Source: a virus (Duplodnaviria; Heunggongvirae; Uroviricota; Caudoviricetes). Taken from it: 12,597 nt of DNA. Position 1 is the first letter of the stretch; the number at the start of each line of letters is the position of its first letter. Below, piece by piece: positions 1,462-12,597 of the stretch. Position numbers and translations under genes: made by a program. The stretch lies in the IMG/VR virus record IMGVR_UViG_2663763227_000011, one strand, 5' to 3'. Below the pieces are notes generated by a model. It was not told the origin of the DNA and did not search any database. It was given only the letters and a program-made list of their open reading frames with translations.

Positions 1462-1937
1462 ATATGTCCTTTTATCACTACATCAAGGCAAGCCATTGAT
1501 TTAATTAAATGATTTGCACTGCAAAAAGTGCTAAAAATCGCAAATTGACTACACCATTAACTACACCGATCGTTGCACTGTATGAAACAACGTGGAACAA
1601 ATAGACACAAGAAATATACAGGCGGGTCATCTTTCCAGGGGGAAGCGCGCTAATTCATGAGGGGCGTTAATGTTGATATGGGGATCCCCATAACGGGGCT
1701 ACCGGATTTTTTTTCCGGTTAACTGTTAATCAGGCTGGTGGGCTTTACCTGTTTTGTAGGAGTGGTCATTATGACCATTCAGACAATGACCTTAATCAGA
1801 ACTTTTCGCTAAAAAATGACGTTGGCCACGTCGTCCGGAAAGCACAAAATCCCGTCAATTTTTAATTAACGGTTAAACCGTCTTTTGTCACGGCGTGTCA
1901 CTGGTTGTAACTCTCCGTCACGGTATGTCGCTACTCG

Positions 1938-2219
1938 TTAACGCCGTAACCGCTCCGGCTTCTTCCAGTGGTACGTAATTTTCTCCGTTTCCCGATACAG
2001 TGCCACGCGGCGATTGTAGGCCAGCATTTCAAGAACGCGGATCCGTATGTTGCGCATATCCACATCATTAAGCTGGATACCATCACGGCGCATCACCTCA
2101 GCAACCACACGCGCGTAATTTTCGGCGGTCACGCTGTCCGGCTGCGTGGCCTGTTCGTCATGCTGCTGGCTGATTCCGGTAACGCGGCGGATTAATCCCA
2201 GTAGTTCGGCTTCTGTCAT
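1938..2219 (-). CDS. Hypothetical protein, 93 aa, last island gene before the phoQ-proximal end
   Basis: The ORF track gives 1938..2417 with a GTG start that reads through the cos site. The internal ATG at 2219..2217 (MTEAELLGLIRR...) has a GGGGG Shine-Dalgarno 5-6 nt upstream and avoids translating cos DNA. Protein-like composition; no family recognised. Confidence 0.45.
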   Translation of the reverse strand: MTEAELLGLIRRVTGISQQHDEQATQPDSVTAENYARVVAEVMRRDGIQLNDVDMRNIRIRVLEMLAYNRRVALYRETEKITYHWKKPERLRR

Positions 2220-2252: not shown

Positions 2253-2431
2253 CGGGTCCTTCCTGGAATTATGGCCCGTTACGGGGCGGCGACCTCGCGC
2301 GTTTTCACTATTTATGAAAATTTTTCGGGATCCATGTCCGGTTTCTCTGCAAGTTAACCATATGAAAAATATAAAAACATGCTTTCCATGAACCGGACAT
2401 GCGCAAAAAACAGACACTAAAACCGGACATC
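2253..2431 (+). other. Lambda-type cos site, copy A: cosQ-like flank, cosN, lambda-like I2 stretch, then three island-specific AACCGGACAT repeats (candidate cosB R sites)
   Basis: 2278-2329 reads cgttACGGGGCGGCGACCTCGCGcGTTTTCaCTATTTATGAAAATTTTtCGG, near-identical to the lambda cos region as I recall it, with the 12-nt cohesive-end sequence GGGCGGCGACCT at 2284-2295. Downstream repeats: ATGTCCGGTT (inverted, 2334-2343), AACCGGACATG (2391-2401), AACCGGACATC (2421-2431). Confidence 0.65.
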
Positions 2432-2498: not shown

Positions 2499-2933
2499 TT
2501 ACTGTTCTGTATCGGCTGATTGCTCCATGCTGGCACGGCGAACGCTTACGGCATGACGCCACCCAGCCAGAAAGCCAGCCATTTTATTTCGTGCCTTGCT
2601 CACATCTTCCGGTGAATAGCCGTAAATCTGCAAACCTTCATCAAATCGATGTTCTGTTTCTTCACTGGAGTACTCGTCACGCTCAGATGAAAGCAGCCTG
2701 GCAAACATAATTTTTTCCAGCGCACTGGTTTCTACGTGATATCTGATGGCCTCAAGACGGCTTTTACCTGAAGACCAAAGCAATGTATGCCCGATGTGAT
2801 AACCGCCAGACTTTCCGCGATCCGCATTAAGATACGGCATCCCCTGTTTGGTCCATGCGCGAATAGTGGTTCTGTTAACCTTGAAATGTTCAGCTATTTC
2901 CTGCTGACTTACAAAACAAGCTTTATCAATCAT
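2499..2933 (-). CDS. Terminase small subunit Nu1-like DNA-binding protein, 144 aa (Rpp-like redirecting-packaging protein candidate)
   Basis: N-terminus SQQEIAEHFKVNRTTIRAWTKQGMPYL aligns with the lambda gpNu1 winged-HTH N-terminus (KKQLADIFGASIRTIQNWQEQGMPVL, from memory). It is much shorter than Nu1 (181 aa) and no large terminase gene is adjacent. ATG at 2933, AAGGT Shine-Dalgarno 6 nt upstream, TAA stop at 2499-2501. Confidence 0.75.
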   Translation of the reverse strand: MIDKACFVSQQEIAEHFKVNRTTIRAWTKQGMPYLNADRGKSGGYHIGHTLLWSSGKSRLEAIRYHVETSALEKIMFARLLSSERDEYSSEETEHRFDEGLQIYGYSPEDVSKARNKMAGFLAGWRHAVSVRRASMEQSADTEQ

Positions 2934-3002: not shown

Positions 3003-3066
3003 ATAAATAGCGAAAACCCGCGAGGTCGCCGCCCCGTAACGGGTCCATATGCCGGAAAGGACCCGT
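3003..3066 (-). other. Second cosQ/cosN copy (copy B), inverted relative to copy A, lacking the AACCGGACAT repeats
   Basis: Reverse complement of 3003-3066 is ~90% identical to 2253-2318, including GGGCGGCGACCT (3023-3034 on the - strand) and CGCGGGTTTTCGCTATTTATGA. The sequence then diverges into the leader of the Nu1-like gene (CGTTTTTCCGT...). Confidence 0.55.
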
Positions 3067-3089
3067 AAAAAAAGCCGGATTTCTCCGGC
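3067..3089 (-). terminator. Rho-independent terminator closing the capsid operon
   Basis: On the - strand: hairpin GCCGGA-GAAA-TCCGGC (3074-3089) followed by a 7-U run (3067-3073), 7 nt after the TGA stop of the 137-aa gene. Confidence 0.65.
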
Positions 3090-3095
3090 CTTATG

Positions 3096-3509
3096 TCAGA
3101 TGGTTTTCAGTATGCGATCGACGTCGCCTTCATCGCCCTGGTTTCTGCCGTCGTATGCCATGCCGGGTGATACGGCTTTCGGGCTGTGCATGTCCATAAA
3201 GTTTTCAAAGGCTGCGGTAAGCTCCGGCGCAACCTTTGGGCGCTCCTGCTCTATGGTCATGTTCAGGATTTCACGAGCATTATCGACGCTAATACATGGC
3301 ACGTTTGCCATTGCACGTAACAGCGGCTGATAGTCGTTATGTTCATGAAGCGCCATAATCGCATCAGCGCGCGGCTTGTCCTGCTCTTCCAGTTTGTTGA
3401 GTTGATATACGGCCTCGTAGGTTGATAAACCTCTGTCAGCCATTGCCCGCGCTTCGGCTTTAAATTTACTCGCCAGCGGTAGCGTCATGACGCTTTCATT
3501 CGTTGCCAT
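3096..3509 (-). CDS. Hypothetical protein, 137 aa, last gene of the capsid operon
   Basis: ATG at 3509 with AGGGGGA Shine-Dalgarno 4 nt upstream, immediately after the decoration-gene stop (translationally coupled). No recognisable family. Confidence 0.55.
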   Translation of the reverse strand: MATNESVMTLPLASKFKAEARAMADRGLSTYEAVYQLNKLEEQDKPRADAIMALHEHNDYQPLLRAMANVPCISVDNAREILNMTIEQERPKVAPELTAAFENFMDMHSPKAVSPGMAYDGRNQGDEGDVDRILKTI

Positions 3510-3521
3510 CGTTCCCCCTGC

Positions 3522-3857
3522 TTATCGGGCCAGCGGCTGAACGGATACGCCAGAACCCGCAAAGGCGGCGCATTTTTTCGCATCGGTGTCGACGCTCTCA
3601 GGCCAGTTAACGGCGGCAATATTGAAAATCCCCGTCTTGTAACACTGTGCTGATTTCTGCTTTGACGTGTCCACAGGGTACGAGGTCAGATAAACAGCCT
3701 TGCCAGATTCCTGACCATCCCACGGCTTAAACTCGCCATTGTCTGCCAGCATCAGCGGGGTAAATTCCTGAATAACGCCAGCATCAGCGGCAAAATGTAC
3801 CAGCGTCGTGGCGACCTGCTGACTGCCTGCAAATAACTCAATGTATGGAGTGTCCAT
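3522..3857 (-). CDS. Head decoration protein, lambda gpD-like, 111 aa
   Basis: TPLMLADNGEFKPWDG and YKTGIFNIAAVNWPESVDTDAKKCAAFAGS parallel remembered lambda gpD segments ([47 protein letters not shown]). GGGGGGA Shine-Dalgarno upstream of ATG 3857. Confidence 0.8.
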   Translation of the reverse strand: MDTPYIELFAGSQQVATTLVHFAADAGVIQEFTPLMLADNGEFKPWDGQESGKAVYLTSYPVDTSKQKSAQCYKTGIFNIAAVNWPESVDTDAKKCAAFAGSGVSVQPLAR

Positions 3858-3869
3858 AGAATCCCCCCG

Positions 3870-4925
3870 TTAACCAATTTTGACGGTAACAAATTTGCGA
3901 ATATCTGCCGGTACCGGCTGCGGTGCACTGTGTGTCTGCACGTACTCAATCGCCGGATCGCCGTCCTCAATCCAGTTTTTCGGGTAAAACATGTTTTGTG
4001 TTGCGCCCGTTCTTACCGCTTCCTGATCCATTATCGCACCATAGGCCACCAGCCCTTTATTGTTGGTGTTACCTAGGACCAGCAAATCAGGCTCAAGGAA
4101 ATATTTTTCGGTACCATCGCTGTCAGTGTATTTGCCGGAATAGACGATAAGGGCCAGATCACCAAGATAGCCTTTAAAGCTCACCACTTCGCCCAGGTTT
4201 TTACAGGCCAGTTCGGCGGCGGATTCTGAACCACGGGAAAGATCGTACAGCTCACGGAATTTTTTAAAGCTGCGTAACGTTCGCCATACCTCAGCGCCCA
4301 TAATCATGACGTTTGCGGGGCAACCAGCCTGATCGGCGTATAGTTCGATATCATAGATTGGATCGTGGGTTTCTTTGTCCTGCTCTGACCATTTTTTCCC
4401 GTCGGCCTGCTCTATGATGTTTTTTTCCGGTATCTTCCAGTCGATTTCATAGCGCTCTATGCCTTCGCCCTCAATGATGTTTTTTCCGGTCGTTACCGCA
4501 TTTACCGCCAGCCATTCCACGCGCGCTTTTATGGCGTTTATCTGGCGGCGCATATTGCCAGTAATCAGGCGCATACGGCGATAGGTAGGGTCGTTAAGCT
4601 GTGCCGGATCTTCTCCAGCCATGCGCATGATGGTTTTCGTTGGATCGATTTCGTGCTTTGGCTTCATGTAGCCAGGTTTAATCGTGCTGGTTTCGTACCC
4701 TTTATCGCGCTGAACCTGGCTACCCACCATAGGCGAACAAAACGCCGACATGGTGACTTCTTCAATGTCCAGGGTATCCAGCATGATGTTTTGCGTGCTG
4801 AATGTCGCCACGTTCGGGAAAAACAGCGTAGTAAACAGAGGGCTGAATTTAAAATCCGCAATATCCCCGCGATTCAGGTACATGAAAAGCTGGTTAGTGT
4901 TAAGTGCCGTTGCTTTGCCTGCCAT
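3870..4925 (-). CDS. Major capsid protein, lambda gpE family, 351 aa
   Basis: Several blocks match remembered lambda gpE: KFSPLFTTLFF, PGYMKPKHEIDP, DPTYRRMRLITGNMRR, FKGYLGDLALIVYSGKY...LVLGNTNNKGLVAYGAIMD, YPKNWIEDGDPAIEY. The ATG overlaps the stop of the upstream 68-aa ORF (TAATG). Confidence 0.85.
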   Translation of the reverse strand: MAGKATALNTNQLFMYLNRGDIADFKFSPLFTTLFFPNVATFSTQNIMLDTLDIEEVTMSAFCSPMVGSQVQRDKGYETSTIKPGYMKPKHEIDPTKTIMRMAGEDPAQLNDPTYRRMRLITGNMRRQINAIKARVEWLAVNAVTTGKNIIEGEGIERYEIDWKIPEKNIIEQADGKKWSEQDKETHDPIYDIELYADQAGCPANVMIMGAEVWRTLRSFKKFRELYDLSRGSESAAELACKNLGEVVSFKGYLGDLALIVYSGKYTDSDGTEKYFLEPDLLVLGNTNNKGLVAYGAIMDQEAVRTGATQNMFYPKNWIEDGDPAIEYVQTHSAPQPVPADIRKFVTVKIG

Positions 4926-5131
4926 TATTCACCCCCATAATTTTTATGCATCCCAAGCGCCGCAAGTAAATAAGAGCGTACAAGTGAACCTATCGACGGC
5001 TCCGGCGTCATCAGCGGATCCAGTCCAGCCGCCACGCCAGCCTCATAGTTTTTTTTGTGGCGCTGCTTGAGCACCTCCACGATTTCGGGGCTTATGTACA
5101 CCGAAACACCGCCTTTTTTCTCTTCAGCCAT
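4925..5131 (-). CDS. Hypothetical small protein, 68 aa, first gene of the capsid operon; N-terminus resembles a ribbon-helix-helix fold
   Basis: ATG at 5131 with GAGGAA Shine-Dalgarno. N-terminus KGGVSVYISPEIVEVLKQ has the beta-strand then helix pattern of RHH regulators (tentative). Stop overlaps the capsid start. Confidence 0.5.
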   Translation of the reverse strand: MAEEKKGGVSVYISPEIVEVLKQRHKKNYEAGVAAGLDPLMTPEPSIGSLVRSYLLAALGMHKNYGGE

Positions 5132-5166
5132 AGTAAGAAATTCCTCTTCGACTTAAAAAATCATAA

Positions 5167-5215
5167 CTGGATGTTCATCCAGCTCTGATTATAATCAGGA
5201 TTGCGTTTTGTGCAA
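5167..5215 (-). promoter_or_regulatory. Near-consensus sigma70 promoter for the capsid operon with two adjacent CTG...CAG palindromes
   Basis: On the - strand: -35 TTGCAC (5215-5210), 16-nt spacer, -10 TATAAT (5193-5188). The -10 lies inside the perfect 14-bp palindrome CTGATTATAATCAG (5185-5198); the perfect 16-bp palindrome CTGGATGttCATCCAG (5167-5182) covers roughly +1 to +16. Confidence 0.5.
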
Positions 5216-5296
5216 TGATATTGAGTTGTGTTGCAAATTATGAAATGATGATCCCGCTCATGTGTGTCAGTGCACCAAAAAGCCTCATATGCAAAA

Positions 5297-5333
5297 GCCC
5301 GATAAGCCACCTCTGACCTTATCGGGCTTTTTT
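5297..5333. terminator. Strong hairpin terminator between the replication and capsid operons, probably bidirectional
   Basis: Perfect 10-bp stem GCCCGATAAG / CTTATCGGGC with an 11-nt loop, followed by T6 on the + strand and preceded by A4 (U4 on the - strand). Confidence 0.5.
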
Positions 5334-5507
5334 ATCTGCCTGCAAAGATGTCGAACGAAAATTAACCACAACCATCATCTTTTTTGCATCAAAACAATTA
5401 AAAACAATAAATTACGCTCATGATGATGATGACGATAAAATCACAAAAATGCGCTTTTTTCCGCGCTTCCCGCCCCGTGTTCAGGCCCACCCCGCCAGGA
5501 GGACCCG

Positions 5508-5530
5508 TAAAAAAGCCGGATTGCTCCGGC
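5508..5530 (-). terminator. Rho-independent terminator after SSB
   Basis: On the - strand: hairpin GCCGGA-GCAA-TCCGGC (5515-5530) followed by a U-rich run (5508-5514), 17 nt after the SSB stop. Almost identical in sequence to the terminator at 3067-3089. Confidence 0.65.
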
Positions 5531-5546
5531 TTCTGTCTCTCGTCGC

Positions 5547-5969
5547 TTAAAACGGTATGTTATCCCCGTACGGATCATCATTCCCCGCCTGTTGTTTTGC
5601 CCTGTTCAGCGCGTCAGTAGCCTGGCCCTGTTGACCTTTTTTGCCGCCCAGTCGCGCCGTTCGCGCACTGATTACACTGTCTGCGATAACCTGCCAGCCC
5701 TGCCGCGTTTCTCCGTTCTGCCCAGTCCACTGGCTGATCTGCATGTTACCCGCCACGCTCAGGAGTTCACCCTTGCGGTGCCTTTCCAGTGCTTCGGCCT
5801 GTCTGCCAAATGCCAGGACGGATAACCACATCGTCGCCGTTCCGTCATCTGCCTGGCTGCACGGAAGGGGGACCGCCATACGCGCCAGCGTCATCGGTGT
5901 GCCCTTGCTGGTCTGTTTTACCTGCGGGTCGTCCACCAGCCGCCCGTAAGCTGCTATCTGTGCTGTCAT
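5547..5969 (-). CDS. ssb: Single-stranded DNA-binding protein (SSB), 140 aa
   Basis: OB-fold SSB pattern (GRLVDDP...WLSVLAFGRQAE...KGELLSVAG...WTGQNGETRQ) followed by a Gly/Gln-rich linker and a C-terminal acidic ...DDPYGDNIPF tail resembling the E. coli SSB DDDIPF tip. GGAGAGG Shine-Dalgarno; ATG overlaps the upstream TGA (ATGA). Confidence 0.85.
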   Translation of the reverse strand: MTAQIAAYGRLVDDPQVKQTSKGTPMTLARMAVPLPCSQADDGTATMWLSVLAFGRQAEALERHRKGELLSVAGNMQISQWTGQNGETRQGWQVIADSVISARTARLGGKKGQQGQATDALNRAKQQAGNDDPYGDNIPF

Positions 5970-6244
5970 GATTCCACCTCTCCGGTTTTAACGTTGATGG
6001 TTGTTACCTGTTCCGCTTCGGCAATCTCCCGCTCTGTCAGCGTGGCAAAATTTGCCGCCGTCGTGGTCATGAATGCGCTTATCAGTTCGGGATGTGCTTT
6101 CGCGTATCCTTCCCCCGCGTGGCGGTCTATCGTTCTGATTGCCACCTTTAAAGCGTGCTCTGTCATGTCTAACGCGCGATATTTCGGTTCTGTTCTGTCT
6201 CTGCGTTTTTTGAGTGATTTATTAAATTTCCCTGAAGTGTGCAT
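5966..6244 (-). CDS. Hypothetical protein, 92 aa, between the origin and ssb
   Basis: ATG at 6244 with GAGGGGG about 11 nt upstream; translationally coupled to ssb. No family recognised. Confidence 0.5.
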   Translation of the reverse strand: MHTSGKFNKSLKKRRDRTEPKYRALDMTEHALKVAIRTIDRHAGEGYAKAHPELISAFMTTTAANFATLTEREIAEAEQVTTINVKTGEVES

Positions 6245-6292
6245 ATTTATTTTTACCCCCTCGTTTAAAAAGTTTTGAGTTGTGCCTCCCCT

Positions 6293-6519
6293 TGTCTACC
6301 TTATCTACCTTAGTGGCCCTCATGCCAGTAATGGCGCGGCTTTCAGCGGGGTAGAGTGCTTTTATCCACTATCTACCCCGTGTCTACCTCCCTGTCTGAT
6401 TCAGGTAAAATCAGGTAGAGAGGGTAGATAGTGGGTAGACAGTAAAAAAAGGCTATCTACCTAACTTAATGCACTGAATTAAATGTATTTTTCTTTACTC
6501 AGGTAGACAGGGTAGACAG
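6293..6519. repeat. Iteron-type replication origin: about 11 copies of GGTAGA(C/G)AG / CTnTCTACC in both orientations flanking an AT-rich segment
   Basis: TCTACC at 6295, 6304, 6372, 6383, 6456; GGTAGA at 6350, 6414, 6423, 6434, 6502, 6511; AT-rich stretch 6462-6500. Lies directly 3' of the primase/helicase gene, as in PICI and plasmid origins. Confidence 0.7.
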
Positions 6520-6532
6520 CAATTACAAAAAA

Positions 6533-8287
6533 TTATAAAAACGCGTCGCACTCGTCTGTTGTTATTGCGTTAGTCTGCGTTACCCCCTTAACTTTCCGCG
6601 TAATATATTCATGTCCGTAAACTTTTGCGGCAGGCTTCATAGCCTTTCCAAAGTCATTTACGTTTAGCGGTTTGCTCCTGCCTGCGTATGCCATAAACGC
6701 CAGATAGACGCGGTAAAGGCTGTTCCTGGTCGTGTACTTCACTGAATCGCCACCGCCCCCCATCATCAGGCCGCGCGCTTCCTCCAGAAAATTCAGGAAC
6801 TGGCAAAACTCAATAACCGGATCCGTCTGTTGCTTTATTGCCAGTGCTTCATCACCGTCACGCTGTTCCAGTAGTAAAGCCCGTGCCTTCTCAGGGTCGG
6901 TAAAGTTCGCCAGCAATCGGCGGATAATGACAGGGATTTCAGCCGCGATCTTTTCCGGTAGCTCCCTGTCTTTTTCGGCCTCACTGACGATATTGTCGAA
7001 ACGGAAAATCACGCGACGACGTGCCACACCTCCGGCCCGTTCGGTGAATATCATCGGGTTATTGTTGGTCGCCAGCACCACCGCCCTGATTACAGCCGTG
7101 AAACGCTTTTCGTATTTCGGGTTAATTTCCACGGGGTCACCGCCCGTGATTTTCTTGATGCCCGTTCCTTCGCCTGTATATTTCGGCTGGTCAGCCAGGA
7201 CGATAAGACGACTCCCGACAACCTGCGCACGTCCACCAGCATCATCAAGCGATGTCATTTCAGCGCTTACCGTGTTCTGTTTCCCTGCCAGAAGGCTGGC
7301 TATGTGCGTGAATGTACTTTTACCGCTCCCGCCGTCTCCGGTGGCCTCAATAAACATCTGCCAGTCGTACCGGTTCGCCATAATCATGTACAGCGCGGCA
7401 CATATACGCATCATCTTGCGCGGGTCTTTTCCGGCTGCGTGCTCAAGCCATTTATGAAAGTTTGGCGCGTTATCGCGGATGTTCTCCCCTGGTGCTGGTG
7501 GCGTGTACTCAATGCCGTTGTGCGTGGTGATCCAGTTCTCCGGCGTGTGCGGGGAAAATCCCCCCGTTTTCAGGTCAAGCGCACCATTGGCGAACGGCAG
7601 CAAATCGCCGGACGGCTCGCCCATTGGTTCGGCAATAACTTTTAACGCTTCCACGGCGTTATTGATTACGCGCTTGCTGAAAGTGGCCCTGTGCTCTGAA
7701 TAGATCGCCACCATTTCGCGGCTAAGTTCCATTGTGCTGACCGGACACCATACCCCGCCGCGCCATACGTGAACGATTTCACTTTCAGGATGTACGCAAA
7801 CGCCATCAAAGCGATCGGCAAGCAGCTGCGCGCGCTCACTGTCCGCCATCTGCGAAAGTTGCGCCTTTTGCTTTACCGGAAGCTCAATGACCAGACCATC
7901 AGAAAGATTCTGGCGCTCACGGGCCAGATATTCGCGCCAGTTCTCCACCTTCTGACCGTGCATACCATCAGGGTAAAAATTTGCATCCTGTACGCCTGCC
8001 GCCGCCAGCTTCTGGCCAATCGCCTTTATCATTACTGGCGCAAGATATCCGGCCCTGAATATGCGCACGGATTTTCTGCCTTCCGGCACAATTTGCAGCT
8101 TATCCAGTTCTGATAACTGCTGCTCCCCAAGCCACACAGGAGGCTCATTATCTCCGGCCATACGCGCATCATGTTCCTGCCATTGTTTCGCGTGTGCCCA
8201 GGCATCACTACCCGCAAAAATAATGACTTCTGTTCCTTTGTGTTTTATGCCGCGTGACTGCTGTTTTACGTTCGGTGCCAGTTTCAT
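6533..8287 (-). CDS. Primase / replication initiator with SF3-type P-loop NTPase domain (P4-family primase-helicase; Pri-Rep-like), 584 aa
   Basis: Walker A motif GDGGSGKST and Walker B-like RLIVLAD in the C-terminal half, a long N-terminal primase-like region, adjacent iteron origin. ATG overlaps the upstream stop (ATGA). Confidence 0.9.
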   Translation of the reverse strand: MKLAPNVKQQSRGIKHKGTEVIIFAGSDAWAHAKQWQEHDARMAGDNEPPVWLGEQQLSELDKLQIVPEGRKSVRIFRAGYLAPVMIKAIGQKLAAAGVQDANFYPDGMHGQKVENWREYLARERQNLSDGLVIELPVKQKAQLSQMADSERAQLLADRFDGVCVHPESEIVHVWRGGVWCPVSTMELSREMVAIYSEHRATFSKRVINNAVEALKVIAEPMGEPSGDLLPFANGALDLKTGGFSPHTPENWITTHNGIEYTPPAPGENIRDNAPNFHKWLEHAAGKDPRKMMRICAALYMIMANRYDWQMFIEATGDGGSGKSTFTHIASLLAGKQNTVSAEMTSLDDAGGRAQVVGSRLIVLADQPKYTGEGTGIKKITGGDPVEINPKYEKRFTAVIRAVVLATNNNPMIFTERAGGVARRRVIFRFDNIVSEAEKDRELPEKIAAEIPVIIRRLLANFTDPEKARALLLEQRDGDEALAIKQQTDPVIEFCQFLNFLEEARGLMMGGGGDSVKYTTRNSLYRVYLAFMAYAGRSKPLNVNDFGKAMKPAAKVYGHEYITRKVKGVTQTNAITTDECDAFL

Positions 8288-9258: not shown

Positions 9259-9478
9259 GTACCCCTCCGCATTTTTTTTCGTTAGAAATAAGCGTTCTTC
9301 TTTCCTGTTCATCGCTCAGGAATACGCAGACCTCACCGCTAAGGCGTTTAAGTAAGCCGATGATTGCCCCTGATTCGCTGTCGGTCATCATGCTAGGGTA
9401 ATCCTCTGCCAGTGCGCAAATAACTTCGATTTGGTGGGCGCGTTCTGCTGCCTGTTGTAGTGTGATTTCCTGGCTCAT
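9248..9478 (-). CDS. Hypothetical protein, 76 aa
   Basis: ATG at 9478 overlaps the TGA of the upstream 66-aa ORF (ATGA); its 3' end contains the Shine-Dalgarno and start of the next gene. Confidence 0.5.
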   Translation of the reverse strand: MSQEITLQQAAERAHQIEVICALAEDYPSMMTDSESGAIIGLLKRLSGEVCVFLSDEQERRTLISNEKKCGGVHVQ

Positions 9479-9675
9479 AAGCCTACCCCCTGACGAATAC
9501 GGGCAGCAAATACCATCACGCAGCCAGCCGGAGATTGCTGGCGTGCTTCCTGTTCGCTGGTGGCCTCAATGGTAATCACGCGCGGTTGTGCCGTGCTCAG
9601 GGCGATAAAACGCCAGATGTATTTATTCAGGTTGTGCGAGTCCCGCCCTTTCGGGTGTGTGGTATGATTTCTCAT
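9475..9675 (-). CDS. Hypothetical small protein, 66 aa, first gene of the replication operon; tentatively Icd-like
   Basis: ATG at 9675 with GAGGT Shine-Dalgarno 4 nt upstream. This is the in-frame tail of the 428-aa ORF in the track, here treated as an independent gene. The YIWRFIAL motif reminds me of proteins annotated as host cell division inhibitor Icd-like in P4-like prophages (memory only). Confidence 0.5.
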   Translation of the reverse strand: MRNHTTHPKGRDSHNLNKYIWRFIALSTAQPRVITIEATSEQEARQQSPAGCVMVFAARIRQGVGL

Positions 9676-9771
9676 AGCTACCTCGATACTGTTGCTATCG
9701 TTGGTGGTTAGAAGCCCCGTTACTGCTCCTACAGTGCGGGGTTTCGTCGTTTCTGTGCCTTTCATCAATAA

Positions 9772-9854
9772 GGTGTAAGACACAATGTAAAACAATGGTG
9801 TCTTACACGTCAACCCTTCAAAATATTTTTTTTTCGTGTATATTGTCTTACACC
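9772..9854. promoter_or_regulatory. Divergent back-to-back promoters with three copies of an 11-bp operator half-site GTGTAAGACAC
   Basis: Perfect inverted repeat GTGTAAGACAC (9773-9783) / GTGTCTTACAC (9798-9808) with a 14-bp spacer, plus a third half-site TGTCTTACACC (9844-9854). Leftward promoter: -35 TTGACG (rc of 9809-9814) and -10 TACATT, with the inverted repeat spanning its core. Rightward promoter: -35 TTCAAA (9817-9822), 16-nt spacer, -10 TATATT (9839-9844), overlapped by the third half-site. Confidence 0.55.
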
Positions 9855-9874
9855 AAAAACATGAGGGGTTAAAC

Positions 9875-10054
9875 ATGGCAACGGGTCCAAAGAATGCAAA
9901 ATCACAATCTGTAACTGCACGTATTGCCCATGAAATTATTGAAGGCATGGAGAACGTGAAAGAAGAAGGCGAAAGCACGGGACAGTTTATAAACGCAGCC
10001 ATGCGCGGCGAAATCAAACGCCGCCAGCGCCGCAAGGCCAAAGAGCAGGAGTAA
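9875..10054 (+). CDS. Small ribbon-helix-helix-like DNA-binding protein, 59 aa (candidate repressor of the divergent promoters)
   Basis: ATG 9875 with GAGGGG Shine-Dalgarno 6 nt upstream. SVTARIAHEIIEGMENVKEEGESTGQFINAAMRGEIKRRQ fits an RHH beta-strand plus two helices; good E. coli codon usage. Opposite in orientation to every other island gene. The ORF track's 9836 GTG start is rejected. Confidence 0.6.
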   Translation: MATGPKNAKSQSVTARIAHEIIEGMENVKEEGESTGQFINAAMRGEIKRRQRRKAKEQE

Positions 10055-10111
10055 CCATCACCAGCGCCGTGGTGTGAGTAACTACGGCGCATTGCTATGC
10101 AGGACAACACA

Positions 10112-10285
10112 ATGACCGATAAAGAATTGACCAAAACATTATCACCGGCACGGAAAAGACGGCGCAGAAAGATAGAGCATGAATCAGAAAGATTCGCGCC
10201 ATGTGCTTTTGCCCTTGAGCAATTCCTTAAAGAGTACAGGGAAAAGCGCTCATTGCAGGTATGGCAACGAACTGAACCAGACTGA
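10112..10285 (+). CDS. Small, highly basic protein, 57 aa, co-transcribed with the RHH gene
   Basis: ATG 10112 with AGGA 7 nt upstream (the ORF track starts at 10097). Contains RKRRRRK; rare codons suggest horizontal origin; followed by + strand terminators. No family recognised. Confidence 0.45.
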   Translation: MTDKELTKTLSPARKRRRRKIEHESERFAPCAFALEQFLKEYREKRSLQVWQRTEPD

Positions 10286-10364
10286 TTGCATTGCCCACCA
10301 GCCGCAAATGTGGCATTGTTGGCAATGCTCATGCGTTGGGGATAACGTGTAGCTTGTGTCGAGG

Positions 10365-10393
10365 GGCCACCGTAGCGGGTGGCCTTTGTTTTG
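10365..10393 (+). terminator. Rho-independent terminator of the + strand cassette
   Basis: GGCCACC-gtagcg-GGTGGCC hairpin followed by TTTGTTTTG. A second + strand hairpin with a GCAA loop and T-run at 10488-10520 may act as a backup. Confidence 0.55.
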
Positions 10394-10761
10394 CCCGTTA
10401 TTCGGCAATTGTGGCGCTTCTCCACATGGTTGATATAATCCCACTGCTCAGATTCATTTTTTGCGCAGTAGGTTAATTGTTCACAAAGGCGCTCCGGCAA
10501 CGGGGCGCTTTTTGTTTTTATTAGTTTGTAGAAACCTGACTCAGAGATAATGCTCATATTCTGATTGCCGTCAGGGGTGTAAGTTAAATTTACTCCCTTT
10601 TTATCATCAAACATCTGCAACGCTCTGGCGTTAACAATATTGGTTTCACTCCCGCCAGTAAGGCCGGAAATAACCGGAATAATTTCGGCAAAATTTTGCA
10701 GATTCTGTTTTTCAGGACGAACGAAGCCCCGCCCTTGTTCGGGAGAATATCCAGTATTCAT
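10380..10761 (-). pseudogene. KilA-N/Bro-N-like (antirepressor-like) N-terminal coding region with no in-frame stop; probably a truncated or disrupted gene
   Basis: The first ~125 aa are protein-like and contain TYTPDGNQNMSIISESGFYKLI, resembling the Bro-N/KilA-N core (P22 Ant-like SVINESGLYSLI, from memory). Beyond about 10380 the same frame continues for ~230 codons of Cys/Ser/Arg/Trp-rich junk, antisense to the + strand genes, until it joins the 66-aa ORF. The lower coordinate is approximate. Confidence 0.4.
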
Positions 10762-10813: not shown

Positions 10814-11002
10814 TTAGTGAACTGCCTCGCAGCTGTCCTTCCATGCCAGAACTTCGGATAAAGACCAGCCAACGGAACGACCGCCCAGCTTACGCCGTGA
10901 TGGGAATTGTCCGGCTTTTTCCAGGCGGTACCGACATGAGCGGCTCAGGCCTGTAAGTTGCTGACATTCTTTTTCACGTATAAAGCGATCTGTGCTTAAC
11001 AC
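10814..11002 (-). CDS. alpA: AlpA-family phage regulatory protein (Xis-like winged-helix activator), 62 aa
   Basis: LTGLSRSCRYRLEKAGQFPSRRKLGGRSVGWSLSEVLAW matches the AlpA/Vis family signature (TG-SR-T-Y...FP...LG-RSVGW...EV--W). GTG start at 11002 with GGGGGA Shine-Dalgarno; TAA stop at 10814-10816. Confidence 0.85.
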   Translation of the reverse strand: MLSTDRFIREKECQQLTGLSRSCRYRLEKAGQFPSRRKLGGRSVGWSLSEVLAWKDSCEAVH

Positions 11003-11280
11003 AATTCCCCCTTTGTTGTTTCTTAAAGAGTCATTGGGTGGATTATTGGGTTGGGTTGTGTCGGATTGTGTCAGGGTGTTTGTGGAATGGCAAACACTGG
11101 CTGCGGTCGTTTTACAGAAGCAGGGGGAATGAGAATAAAAACTCTTTTAATTCATTATGATGCAAAGGCATAAAATTTTACTTTTACGCCTTTTTTACAT
11201 ATTTTTAAGAGTGATTCGCCAGTGTATAAAAAAACAGTACACCTATAAAAATCAAATGGTTATTACGATGGCTGATTTTT

Positions 11281-11340
11281 AACCCGTTGTTCCATTTTGT
11301 TCCTTGTTGTTCGTCGTTGTGTCTCGTTGTTTCACGTTGT
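11281..11340. repeat. Six tandem 10-bp-phased repeats (consensus about TCnTCGTTGT) just downstream of the integrase stop
   Basis: aacccgttgt / tccattttgt / tccttgttgt / tcgtcgttgt / gtctcgttgt / ttcacgttgt: each 10-mer ends in TTGT, giving exact helical phasing. A second GT-rich repeat cluster (GATTGTGTC, GGGTTGTGTC) lies at 11038-11090 in the alpA leader. Confidence 0.6.
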
Positions 11341-11367
11341 CCGCATCCTGAAAAATCGCAAAAAAAA

Positions 11368-12597
11368 TTATATTTCTCTGGCTATTGGCAATGTGGTTAC
11401 GTTTTCATGTGTTCCCGCCAGTATCCCTAACCGCTCCGTCCACATATCCAGCGCGTCACGTTTCGCATCCAGATAACGGGAATGGTTATAGACTCGTTGC
11501 ATCCCTGGCATCTGATGACCTGTAAGCTGCTCCACGACGTGAGGATCCACGCCTAAATCGTTCAGCATCGTTGTAAAGGTGCGCCGGATGTCATGCAGTG
11601 ACCAGTGAGGGTGTTTTAGCCTCCTGTGCGCTAATCTGCCGTACTGCGACACGCTTGTTTCCTGTTTCACTTCCCCCAGCAATAAGCCCGTGTGCCTGTT
11701 CTGCTCCACCAGCTGCGTGACGAACGGCAGTATTGCTTCCGGTATGGGCCGGAATATTGCCACCTTCGTTTTGCTGTGTTCTTTCGGCACGGTCCAGAGC
11801 ATTTCGGTAAAATCCCACTCGCTGATCTCCGATAACCTCAGTTCTACCGTCCGGCATCCGAAAACAATCAGGAGGCGGATTAGTGCGACGTAGTAAGGGG
11901 AAAATATTTTTTTGTCCAGTGCCTGCAATAATTCGCCAAGTTCTTTGGTGCTTAAGACACGCTCGCTTATATCCGGTTTTTTCCCAACGTCCGCCACACT
12001 CATATCATCAAGAACGTTGCTGATTGCATAGCGCCGCCTCCGGCAGAACTTAAGCGCCTGTTTGCACGTCTGTAGCAAGAATCCGGCAGTAACAGGCGTT
12101 CGCTTTGCCACCTGGTCAAAACAGGCCAGCCAGTGCCGTAGCTCGCATTTATCCAGCGGCATAGCACCAATGTGCTGTATTACGTGATTATTAAGGCGCT
12201 TTTTCAGGGCGGCATAATCCACGCGGTTTTCCTTTACGTAAGACTCAAGCCAGTAGGTAAGCGCATCGCCAACCGTTACGGGCTTTAACGCTTTCTGTAC
12301 GGTGTAATTCATCTCATGACGTGGATTTTTCCCCTCAGCAAGCCAAGCGCGACACTGTGCCGCTTTTTCCCTGGCAGCTTTCAGACTCAGATCAGGATAA
12401 TTTCCCAGCTTAATCCGTTCCGGTCGTGCTCCCCTTCCCGTTCCGGCCCTGTAGGTGAAATACCAGGTTAAAAGGCCGCTGGTTGAATGCCTGACGCTCA
12501 GGTTTCCACCGTCATTAAGAAAGGCTGTTTTTTGGGCGGGTGTGCCGTTGATTTTCCTTAGCTGTGTATCACTCAGTTTGTTAAGTGCTCTGCGCAT
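11368..12597 (-). CDS. int: Tyrosine-type site-specific integrase, P4/CP4-57 family, 409 aa
   Basis: N-terminus LSDTQLRKINGTP...GGNLSVRHSTSGLLTWYFTYR matches the P4-type integrase arm-binding domain. The C-terminal catalytic region has RTVELRLSEISEWDF, HDIRRTF and the HxxxRxxY-type tail (GHQMPGMQRVYNHSRY). The start codon sits exactly at the window edge, so the true start and the adjacent att site cannot be verified. Confidence 0.9.
   Translation of the reverse strand: MRRALNKLSDTQLRKINGTPAQKTAFLNDGGNLSVRHSTSGLLTWYFTYRAGTGRGARPERIKLGNYPDLSLKAAREKAAQCRAWLAEGKNPRHEMNYTVQKALKPVTVGDALTYWLESYVKENRVDYAALKKRLNNHVIQHIGAMPLDKCELRHWLACFDQVAKRTPVTAGFLLQTCKQALKFCRRRRYAISNVLDDMSVADVGKKPDISERVLSTKELGELLQALDKKIFSPYYVALIRLLIVFGCRTVELRLSEISEWDFTEMLWTVPKEHSKTKVAIFRPIPEAILPFVTQLVEQNRHTGLLLGEVKQETSVSQYGRLAHRRLKHPHWSLHDIRRTFTTMLNDLGVDPHVVEQLTGHQMPGMQRVYNHSRYLDAKRDALDMWTERLGILAGTHENVTTLPIAREI

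Follow-up and report, generated by a model that had tools for sequence, protein, structure and literature searches.

The 12,597-nt viral sequence IMGVR_UViG_2663763227_000011 (Duplodnaviria; Heunggongvirae; Uroviricota; Caudoviricetes), called the window below to mean the whole stretch of DNA analyzed, almost certainly contains a phage-inducible chromosomal island (PICI) of the EcCICFT073 type, about 11.1 kb in length, with cos packaging and integrated at the phoQ/roxA site. We analyzed its head-gene module, a predicted four-gene operon, orf68-E'-D'-Nu3', made up of orthologs of c1498 to c1501 of EcCICFT073 and followed by a terminator, cos1 and rppA. The features of this region are as follows:

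4925..5131, minus strand: orf68, 68 aa, assigned to c1498 from the numbering; matches phrog_3255 at 8.5e-46
3870..4925, minus strand: E', lambda gpE-family HK97-fold major capsid protein (MCP), 351 aa, ortholog of c1499
3522..3857, minus strand: D', gpD/SHP-family head decoration protein, 111 aa, ortholog of c1500
3096..3509, minus strand: Nu3', 137 aa, homolog of the C-terminal region of the lambda Nu3/gpC scaffold, ortholog of c1501
3066..3091, minus strand: intrinsic-terminator-like hairpin and U-run (UUUUUUU), after the fourth gene and directly before cos1; dG -16 kcal/mol, z -2.5
3023..3034, minus strand: cosN of cos1, exact 12-mer, with the cosQ-like sequence TTTACGGGTCC just upstream at ~3050-3066
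2499..2933, minus strand: rppA, encoding a redirecting-phage-packaging protein of 144 aa, ortholog of c1503

The gap between D' and Nu3' is 12 nt and holds a ribosome-binding site (RBS). No terminator follows D' and a hairpin lies at 3066-3091; the operon therefore has four genes. A preliminary description of this DNA had proposed a dedicated operon spanning 3522-5131 with its own terminator, encoding lambda E-like and D-like proteins, with E ahead of D where lambda has D ahead of E, in an element with no portal, protease, scaffold or large terminase. The two protein assignments and the gene order were borne out. The operon extends beyond the proposed span to include Nu3', with its terminator after that gene, and the claim that a scaffold gene is lacking proved wrong. 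Family scans (Pfam, PHROG) of the main window open reading frames (ORFs) of at least 62 aa detected no portal, protease or large terminase, as had been described, and E', the primase, the integrase and an ORF of 428 aa without a match are the only island products longer than 200 aa.

E' matches the Pfam family Phage_cap_E (PF03864) at 5.9e-52 over profile positions 16-328/329 (177 bits against a cut-off of 22.9) and PHROG "major head protein" families at up to 3e-108, and shares 44% identity with lambda gpE across 327 aligned residues, with 2 gaps (E 4e-94). The best match among solved structures is PDB 3BQW (E 8e-236), a 351-aa chain titled "putative capsid protein of prophage" that is near-identical to E' and represents the crystal structure of an ortholog; lambda gpE (PDB 7VI9) comes next at 1e-82. 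The 3BQW structure has been taken as an HK97-type representative in the literature. E' is a gpE-family HK97-fold MCP, and its assembly into a shell is predicted. Its dN/dS is ~0.10 (at dS ~0.8).

D' matches the Pfam family HDPD (lambda D, PF02924) at 1.3e-17 (64.5 bits against a cut-off of 29.1) and phrog_49 at 2.6e-27; among structures it matches phage 21 SHP (PDB 1TD0) at 1.5e-13 and lambda gpD (PDB 1C5E) at 3.5e-9. It is 36% identical to lambda gpD and has a dN/dS of 0.12 (at dS ~0.8). A separate observation concerns a single Logan contig of 3,243 bp (P0068), which encodes a 463-aa protein with both Phage_cap_E and HDPD, an apparent E'-D' fusion that is 56% identical to the window MCP and in which stop-codon loss or an assembly error is possible.

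The fourth gene was assigned through profiles. Nu3' matches phrog_1999 at 1.4e-61 and the C-terminal end of phrog_53 (a "head maturation protease" family) at 2.3e-9, while residues 117-200/201 of lambda Nu3 match phrog_1999 at 2.7e-26 and the same stretch of gpC does so at 1.5e-25. BLASTP of Nu3' against the C-termini of S49 protease/scaffold proteins from lambdoid helper prophages gave values of 1e-8 to 1.6e-10, and a bridge protein (P0136, 195 aa, from 1.84 billion representatives) matches both Nu3' (1e-4 library-wide) and lambda Nu3 (2e-16). Direct BLASTP of Nu3' with lambda Nu3 was not significant, and the link between the two therefore holds at the profile level. In a multiple alignment Nu3' is colinear with the scaffolds up to the last residues, with two IMAL-x-EA...PGMTV-type repeat units, an FxxFM-x-HSP motif, an acidic patch and a hydrophobic tail at the end; the C-terminal scaffold region is conserved, and the N-terminal 45 residues are divergent. 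Searched alone with phmmer against the 1.84 billion representatives, Nu3' gave only eight matches; a word-index search returned only close E. coli relatives, and the PDB held no match. The gene has a dN/dS of 0.2-0.4. It stands free downstream of D' instead of being nested in frame in the 3' part of a protease gene C, and the island scans showed no S49 protease. Nu3' is scaffold-like by homology, with scaffolding activity predicted. In the supplement of PMC6092414, c1501 is listed as a 137-aa protein with no function, and our literature search found no paper tying c1501 to Nu3. A search of NCBIfam named no module protein. NCBI labels relatives of Nu3' (P0001-P0033) "phage head-tail connector protein", which is at odds with homology to the Nu3 scaffold C-terminus.

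E. coli, Salmonella, Edwardsiella and Serratia carry homologs of the MCP that are 52-86% identical to it. Genomic contexts were obtained through protein-identity look-ups, a scan of the genome collection with the MCP having given nothing, and all eight contexts fetched were satellites built as int, (alpA), replication gene, (ssb), (orf68), E', D' and a variable gene. The E-then-D order was found in these eight, in the window and in two close relatives, whereas D precedes E in every one of the five phage or helper loci, those of lambda, phage 204576 and three helper prophages. The satellite MCPs are 50-98% identical to one another and only 39-46% identical to those of lambda and of the prophages that host them; among 50,697 phage records, no MCP exceeded 48% identity and no decoration protein 45.3%. 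By these comparisons E'-D' is a lineage specific to satellites. The module reads as old, vertically maintained and under purifying selection, and not as a recent capture. Full-length copies of the four-gene block (at least ~90% nucleotide identity) were found in 590 of 5,426 complete E. coli genomes, including O157:H7, ATCC 25922 and a Nissle-derived strain, and only 45 of these genomes carry at least 80% of this particular island. The Nu3-like gene is limited to the EcCICFT073 subclade, namely the window, CFT073 and the related satellites L009 and L010. In another subclade D' is followed by an AlpA-family helix-turn-helix (HTH) gene of 114-145 aa (L007 11402-11746, L011 11375-11812 and L012 11403-11756), which is itself sometimes followed by a full-length Nu1-type small terminase gene.

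Several related satellites sit inside helper prophage late genes, in the portal gene (L005), in gene E (L008) and in the head region (L009). The satellite at L011 3526-15183 (Salmonella enterica, GCA_005980655.1) lies within the tail-sheath gene of a P2-like prophage, with an N-terminal sheath fragment before int and the tube, TAC, gpU and gpD genes after it; its E'-D' pair has an MCP 52% identical to E', and no Nu1 or Rpp homolog was detected in this satellite. A capsid gene of lambda type is thus found in a helper-embedded satellite lodged in a tail gene of a myovirus.

In 2018 Fillol-Salom et al. (PMC6092414) described c1499, the capsid gene of EcCICFT073, and c1500, its decoration gene, so the architecture is not the possibly undescribed one of the preliminary description. 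Deletion of c1499 or c1500 left lambda interference and transfer unchanged, and c1499 was swapped for cat owing to "no phenotype"; transfer of the c1499::cat island reached ~1e5 per ml when the native helper was used, 1e3 for lambda and 1e6 for phi80, and the authors reported that the DNA packaged with lambda was all phage-sized, with no island-monomer band (PMC6092414). Among the genes downstream of ori that were cloned and expressed, c1503 (rppA) alone blocked lambda, and its deletion restored lambda plaquing almost fully (PMC6739421). A review by Dokland and the work of Tommasini et al. describe the island as having a capsid homolog and using full-size heads (PMC6893505, PMC10111431), and capsid is the commonest late gene in such satellites, found in 21 of 29 reference Gram-negative PICIs (PMC10111431). 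In later engineering work, islands in which c1498-c1501 were replaced by cas9 or melA cargo were still packaged and transferred. Given the 2018 description and this transfer after cargo replacement, both the architecture and the dispensability of the module are already published, and a role as an obligatory satellite-specific small shell finds no support.

The position of the markers bears on how these results are read. The standard tetA marker sits in c1501 and the alternative marker replaces c1499; the deletions of c1499 and c1500 were made in the c1501::tetA background, and the sole island-bearing lambda lysogen in the 2018 Table S7 is c1499::cat (PMC6092414). Going by this strain table and not by the figure, we infer that the 2018 "phage-sized DNA" test was run with an island that had lost the satellite capsid gene. 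With markers inside c1499 and c1501, the 2018 evidence against size redirection is weaker than it reads. An island marked c1504-c1507::cat has the module intact (PMC10460865), and small particles are not mentioned for it; our literature search found no capsid-size data for this island and no later functional study of the module genes. The intact E'-D'-Nu3' set thus seems to feature in no published test of size redirection. What the present analysis adds appears to be the homology of c1501 to Nu3, the E'-D' lineage with its selection statistics, the regulatory region upstream of orf68 and the caveat on marker positions.

E, D and Nu3 are high-copy components of the lambda head, and the portal and protease are low-copy. 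On balance we lean toward E', D' and Nu3' forming an accessory structural shell set that is redundant in the helpers tested. Purifying selection has kept a capsid protein together with its cognate decoration protein and a scaffold homolog, and shell assembly is therefore the activity most likely to have been selected. The three proteins would be a co-adapted set, long kept in the satellite lineage, that after helper induction assembles alone, or co-assembles with helper proteins, into lambda-type head shells. The satellite would in this way supply the bulk head parts, and the helper the low-copy ones: portal, protease, RppA-redirected terminase, connectors and tails. Next to the E, D and Nu3 of the helpers tested, the set would be redundant, and an island that lacks it can be packaged as concatemers of about four units in full-size helper heads. 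Several observations weigh against this reading. The lack of a deletion phenotype would also fit a function unrelated to capsids, and E' is 44% identical to the helper MCP, which leaves co-assembly uncertain. Several relatives carry no Nu3-like gene, L004 and L005 having no third gene and L007, L011 and L012 having the AlpA-like gene in its position, so that the three-protein set is not universal. The L011 satellite lies in a P2-like prophage region, though the head genes of that prophage were not seen, and our literature search gave no experiment placing E', D' or Nu3' in any particle.

Size redirection, in which E' and an alternative scaffold, Nu3', build smaller satellite-only shells on the helper portal, is in our judgment unlikely, if still a serious contender. 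Such shells would have room for one or two ~11 kb units while shutting out the helper genome. In a version centered on c1501, to which we give the same modest weight, the protein would be a satellite-specific alternative scaffold analogous to CpmB and would work with E' and D' on the helper portal to build shells exclusive to the satellite, perhaps with a lower T number; the effect would have been missed because all marked EcCICFT073 islands whose transfer or capsid size was tested in 2018-2020 had their marker in c1499 or c1501 or the whole block replaced. The layout of Nu3', a conserved scaffold C-terminal region joined to a divergent N-terminus, speaks for this. SaPI1 CpmB, reportedly a small satellite protein sharing the capsid-binding end of the helper scaffold, is said to compete with the 80alpha scaffold through the same kind of layout. 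The likeness of Nu3' to CpmB is in concept only, with no sequence relationship, and a role in capsid size would be by analogy. There are also precedents in SaPIbov5 Ccm and PmCI172, capsid-protein homologs associated with small capsids (PMC6092414, PMC6893505), and the published negatives came from module-damaged islands (c1501::tetA, c1499::cat). Set against these are the report of phage-sized packaged DNA only, with no monomer band, and the transfer of an island lacking E' at 1e5-1e6 per ml (PMC6092414). The nearly gapless alignment of E' with gpE gives no sequence sign of another geometry, and the island with an intact module, c1504-c1507::cat, is in use with small particles unmentioned.

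We also considered that the proteins might act on the helper, poisoning its heads or forming portal-less shells that soak up components and so lower the yield of some phages. Interference is a general trait of satellites, a diverged MCP could in principle make defective mixed capsomers, and E and Nu3 suffice for shells in the lambda "petit" particles. We nevertheless think this improbable, as deletion of c1499 or c1500 left lambda interference in place, deletion of rppA nearly restored plaquing, and no cloned gene downstream of ori other than rppA cut lambda plaques on expression. That the genes are back-up copies, standing in for the helper late genes that related satellites interrupt on integrating, was raised in PMC10111431 and agrees with the close module relatives found inside late genes (L005, L008 and L009). 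However, the present island is at phoQ/roxA, outside any prophage, the module is equally conserved in chromosomally integrated satellites, the satellite inserted in a portal gene (L005) has E'-D' and no portal gene, and excision restores the helper genes (PMC10111431); we hold a back-up role to be about as improbable as interference. The chance that the module is a functionless remnant of a captured phage head cluster is slighter still. The missing phenotype (PMC6092414) and the dynamic late zones of such satellites, which according to the literature pick up helper genes, would allow for it. Yet this reading is already disfavored by the strong purifying selection, by reading frames intact in 590 genomes, by a lineage distinct from all deposited phages and cognate helpers, and by a gene order and upstream regulatory sequence conserved across genera.

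The remaining features of the island are as follows:

5155..5184, minus strand: leader hairpin and T-run between the promoter-like element and the orf68 RBS, picked up by the generic scan; dG -13.5, z -3.0
5188..5215, minus strand: sigma-70-like promoter element TTGCAC-16-TATAAT, conserved in a 7-satellite alignment; putative promoter
5445..5545, minus strand: cos relic directly after ssb, aligning with cos1 and cos2; repeat family D7 in CFT073
2284..2295, plus strand: cosN of cos2, in inverted orientation, exact GGGCGGCGACCT; aligns with cos1
1938..2219, minus strand: orf93, the last gene of the island; matches phrog_1561 at 5.9e-56
5547..8287, minus strand: replication block, with ssb (5547-5969), orf92 (5966-6244) and primase (6533-8287), from Pfam and PHROG
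10814..12597, minus strand: integration block, with alpA (10814-11002) and tyrosine integrase (11368-12597)
1543..1578, island edge beside phoQ: left att core copy (AATTGACTACACCATTAACTACACCGATCGTTGCAC), read in the window and matching the CFT073 direct repeat

The window is ~95.5% identical to EcCICFT073 at the nucleotide level over 95-96% of the island and shares its chromosomal site, its gene order and its two cosN sequences, whereas the region between primase and alpA differs. It starts with phoQ and ends exactly at the start codon of the tyrosine integrase. All satellite genes between phoQ and the window end are on the minus strand, transcribed in the order int, alpA, small ORFs, D5_N/DUF5906 primase, ssb, capsid module, rppA and orf93. 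Two close relatives, CFT073 and the closest complete genome (L013), have roxA directly after the integrase. The CFT073 att direct repeats (L001 4144-4218 and 15363-15437) are 11,219 bp apart with the right copy just past int, which places the right att copy of the present island ~22 bp past the window end. With phoQ at the start, int at the end and roxA next in the relatives, only ~60 bp of att sequence therefore lie beyond the window, and the element is not continued there by portal, protease or terminase genes, in line with the preliminary description.

The primase matches D5_N, DUF5906 and Pox_D5 in Pfam, AlpA matches Phage_AlpA at 3e-18, and the integrase has Arm-DNA-bind_3 and Phage_integrase. 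The hallmarks of a classical Gram-negative cos PICI were all found, with integrase then AlpA at one end, an own primase, the size, att sites and integration site, and cosN with Rpp; by every defining sequence-level feature tested, the island belongs to the EcCICFT073-type cos PICI family. Experiments with EcCICFT073 have demonstrated that induction, packaging and high-frequency transfer depend on a helper (PMC6739421, PMC6092414). The CFT073 and L013 annotations list orf93 as a hypothetical protein of 93 aa, and the gene occurs also in L007. The 428-aa ORF (9475-10761, minus strand) has no family match and covers a divergent regulatory region where the annotation of relatives places several small genes (Icd-like, YlcI/YnfO) on the two strands; as read, the ORF is probably not a genuine gene. 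An Rfam scan of the window gave nothing at E <= 0.1.

Exact lambda cosN 12-mers (GGGCGGCGACCT) occur twice, at 3023-3034 on the minus strand and 2284-2295 on the plus strand, in agreement with the earlier view of the element as a cos satellite. In EcCICFT073, cos1 is the site required for transfer, and cos2 has also been described (PMC6739421, PMC6092414). RppA is 100% identical to its CFT073 counterpart, which binds the helper small terminase and redirects it to the island cos1 (PMC6739421); it matches the RppC structure (PDB 6HLK) at 5e-31, its N-terminal HTH resembles lambda Nu1 and its gene has a dN/dS of 0.2-0.4. Four units of ~11.1 kb amount to ~44 kb, or 91% of the 48.5 kb of lambda; a four-unit concatemer of this length fits the lambda head and agrees with the published concatemer packaging (PMC6092414, PMC10111431). 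The cos relic shares its terminator hairpin and its cosQ-like TTTACGGGTCC with cos1 and continues into a degenerate cosN (GGGCGGGAAGCG); relic and cos1, as cos-like direct repeats, flank the c1498-c1501 module. Such bracketing repeats might explain transfer of the module between satellite backbones, given its presence in 590 genomes against 45 for the island.

Upstream of orf68, we aligned seven satellites from three genera (E. coli, Salmonella and Edwardsiella). An inverted repeat, ATTGC-N7-GCAAT (consensus ATTGCA-N5-TGCAAT), overlaps the promoter-like element; the leader T-run (7/7) and a strong RBS are conserved, and the hairpin is present only in the closest relatives and in Salmonella L004. 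A generic promoter scan performed at chance level (6 sites against 6.2 expected), as did a generic terminator scan. A regulated promoter upstream of orf68 is likely; of the strong promoter in the preliminary description, the conserved TTGCAC-16-TATAAT stood and the strength was overstated. Mimicry of the lambda late promoter PR' or its Q-binding site was rejected, with no real similarity except a 12-nt coincidence in the PR' leader. The operator-like sequence (consensus CAAAATGCAATC, window 5200-5216, minus strand) recurs in the PR' leader, in the 6S RNA region; this lambda copy of CAAAATGCAATC (L014 914-925, lambda ~44713-44724) may be due to chance. CFT073 has a gene for a PerC-family regulator between ssb and orf68 (L001 8064-8312), which is present neither in the window (5131-5547) nor in L013.

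The orf68 stop codon overlaps the E' start (TAATG), and the two genes are predicted to be translationally coupled. Its motif GGVSVYISPDI...GLDPL is kept across satellites, with a dN/dS of 0.2-0.4. No Pfam, NCBIfam or PDB sequence match and no phage tblastn match was found for orf68; its AF2 model (pLDDT 73.5) is beta-alpha-alpha and gave no Foldseek match below E = 3. We tried orf68 as a ribbon-helix-helix regulator of the upstream palindrome, for which neither sequence searches nor Foldseek of the model gave support, and as a lambda gpW homolog, to which it has no similarity. Orf68 is only 68% identical to the CFT073 allele (L001 7603-7809, dS 0.53), while E' (98%), D' (99%) and RppA (100%) beside it are 98-100% identical (dS 0-0.05) and Nu3' is 90% identical. 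The contrast between orf68 and its neighbors suggests that the 5' end of the operon is a recombination mosaic.

Compared with lambda, the module contains the same three families, with E' colinear to gpE, D' in the gpD/SHP fold family and Nu3' sharing the C-terminal ~85 residues of Nu3. It differs in gene order (Nu3-D-E in lambda, E-D-Nu3 in the satellite), in a free-standing Nu3' where lambda Nu3 is nested in the protease gene, in sequence (44% for E, 36% for D and profile-level similarity for Nu3), and in having no portal, protease, terminase or connector. Like SaPIbov5 Ccm and PmCI172, the island encodes a diverged homolog of the helper HK97-fold capsid protein; those elements make small capsids, whereas only phage-sized ones are reported for EcCICFT073, and the island adds decoration and scaffold-like partners. 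Capsid-forming PICIs (cf-PICIs, EcCIEDL933 type) share the int-alpA-rep type of backbone and a satellite-encoded capsid protein. They also have a portal, protease, head-tail connectors, HNH and both terminase subunits, none of which was found among the island ORFs scanned. P4-like satellites have Sid, Psu and Delta, for which no Pfam or PHROG match was found among the island proteins scanned, the primase alone being P4-alpha-like. By its gene content the island is neither a cf-PICI nor P4-like.

The module is present in about one-ninth of complete E. coli genomes, and in engineering work the field regards c1498-c1501 as dispensable, a slot for cargo. That the module is so strongly conserved as a lineage specific to satellites says that it has a function. 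The scaffold homolog encoded by c1501, together with the module-damaged islands behind the published negatives, could make the question of that function directly testable. The outcome would be either a new way for a satellite to exploit helper head assembly or another selected role for a capsid-decoration-scaffold set.

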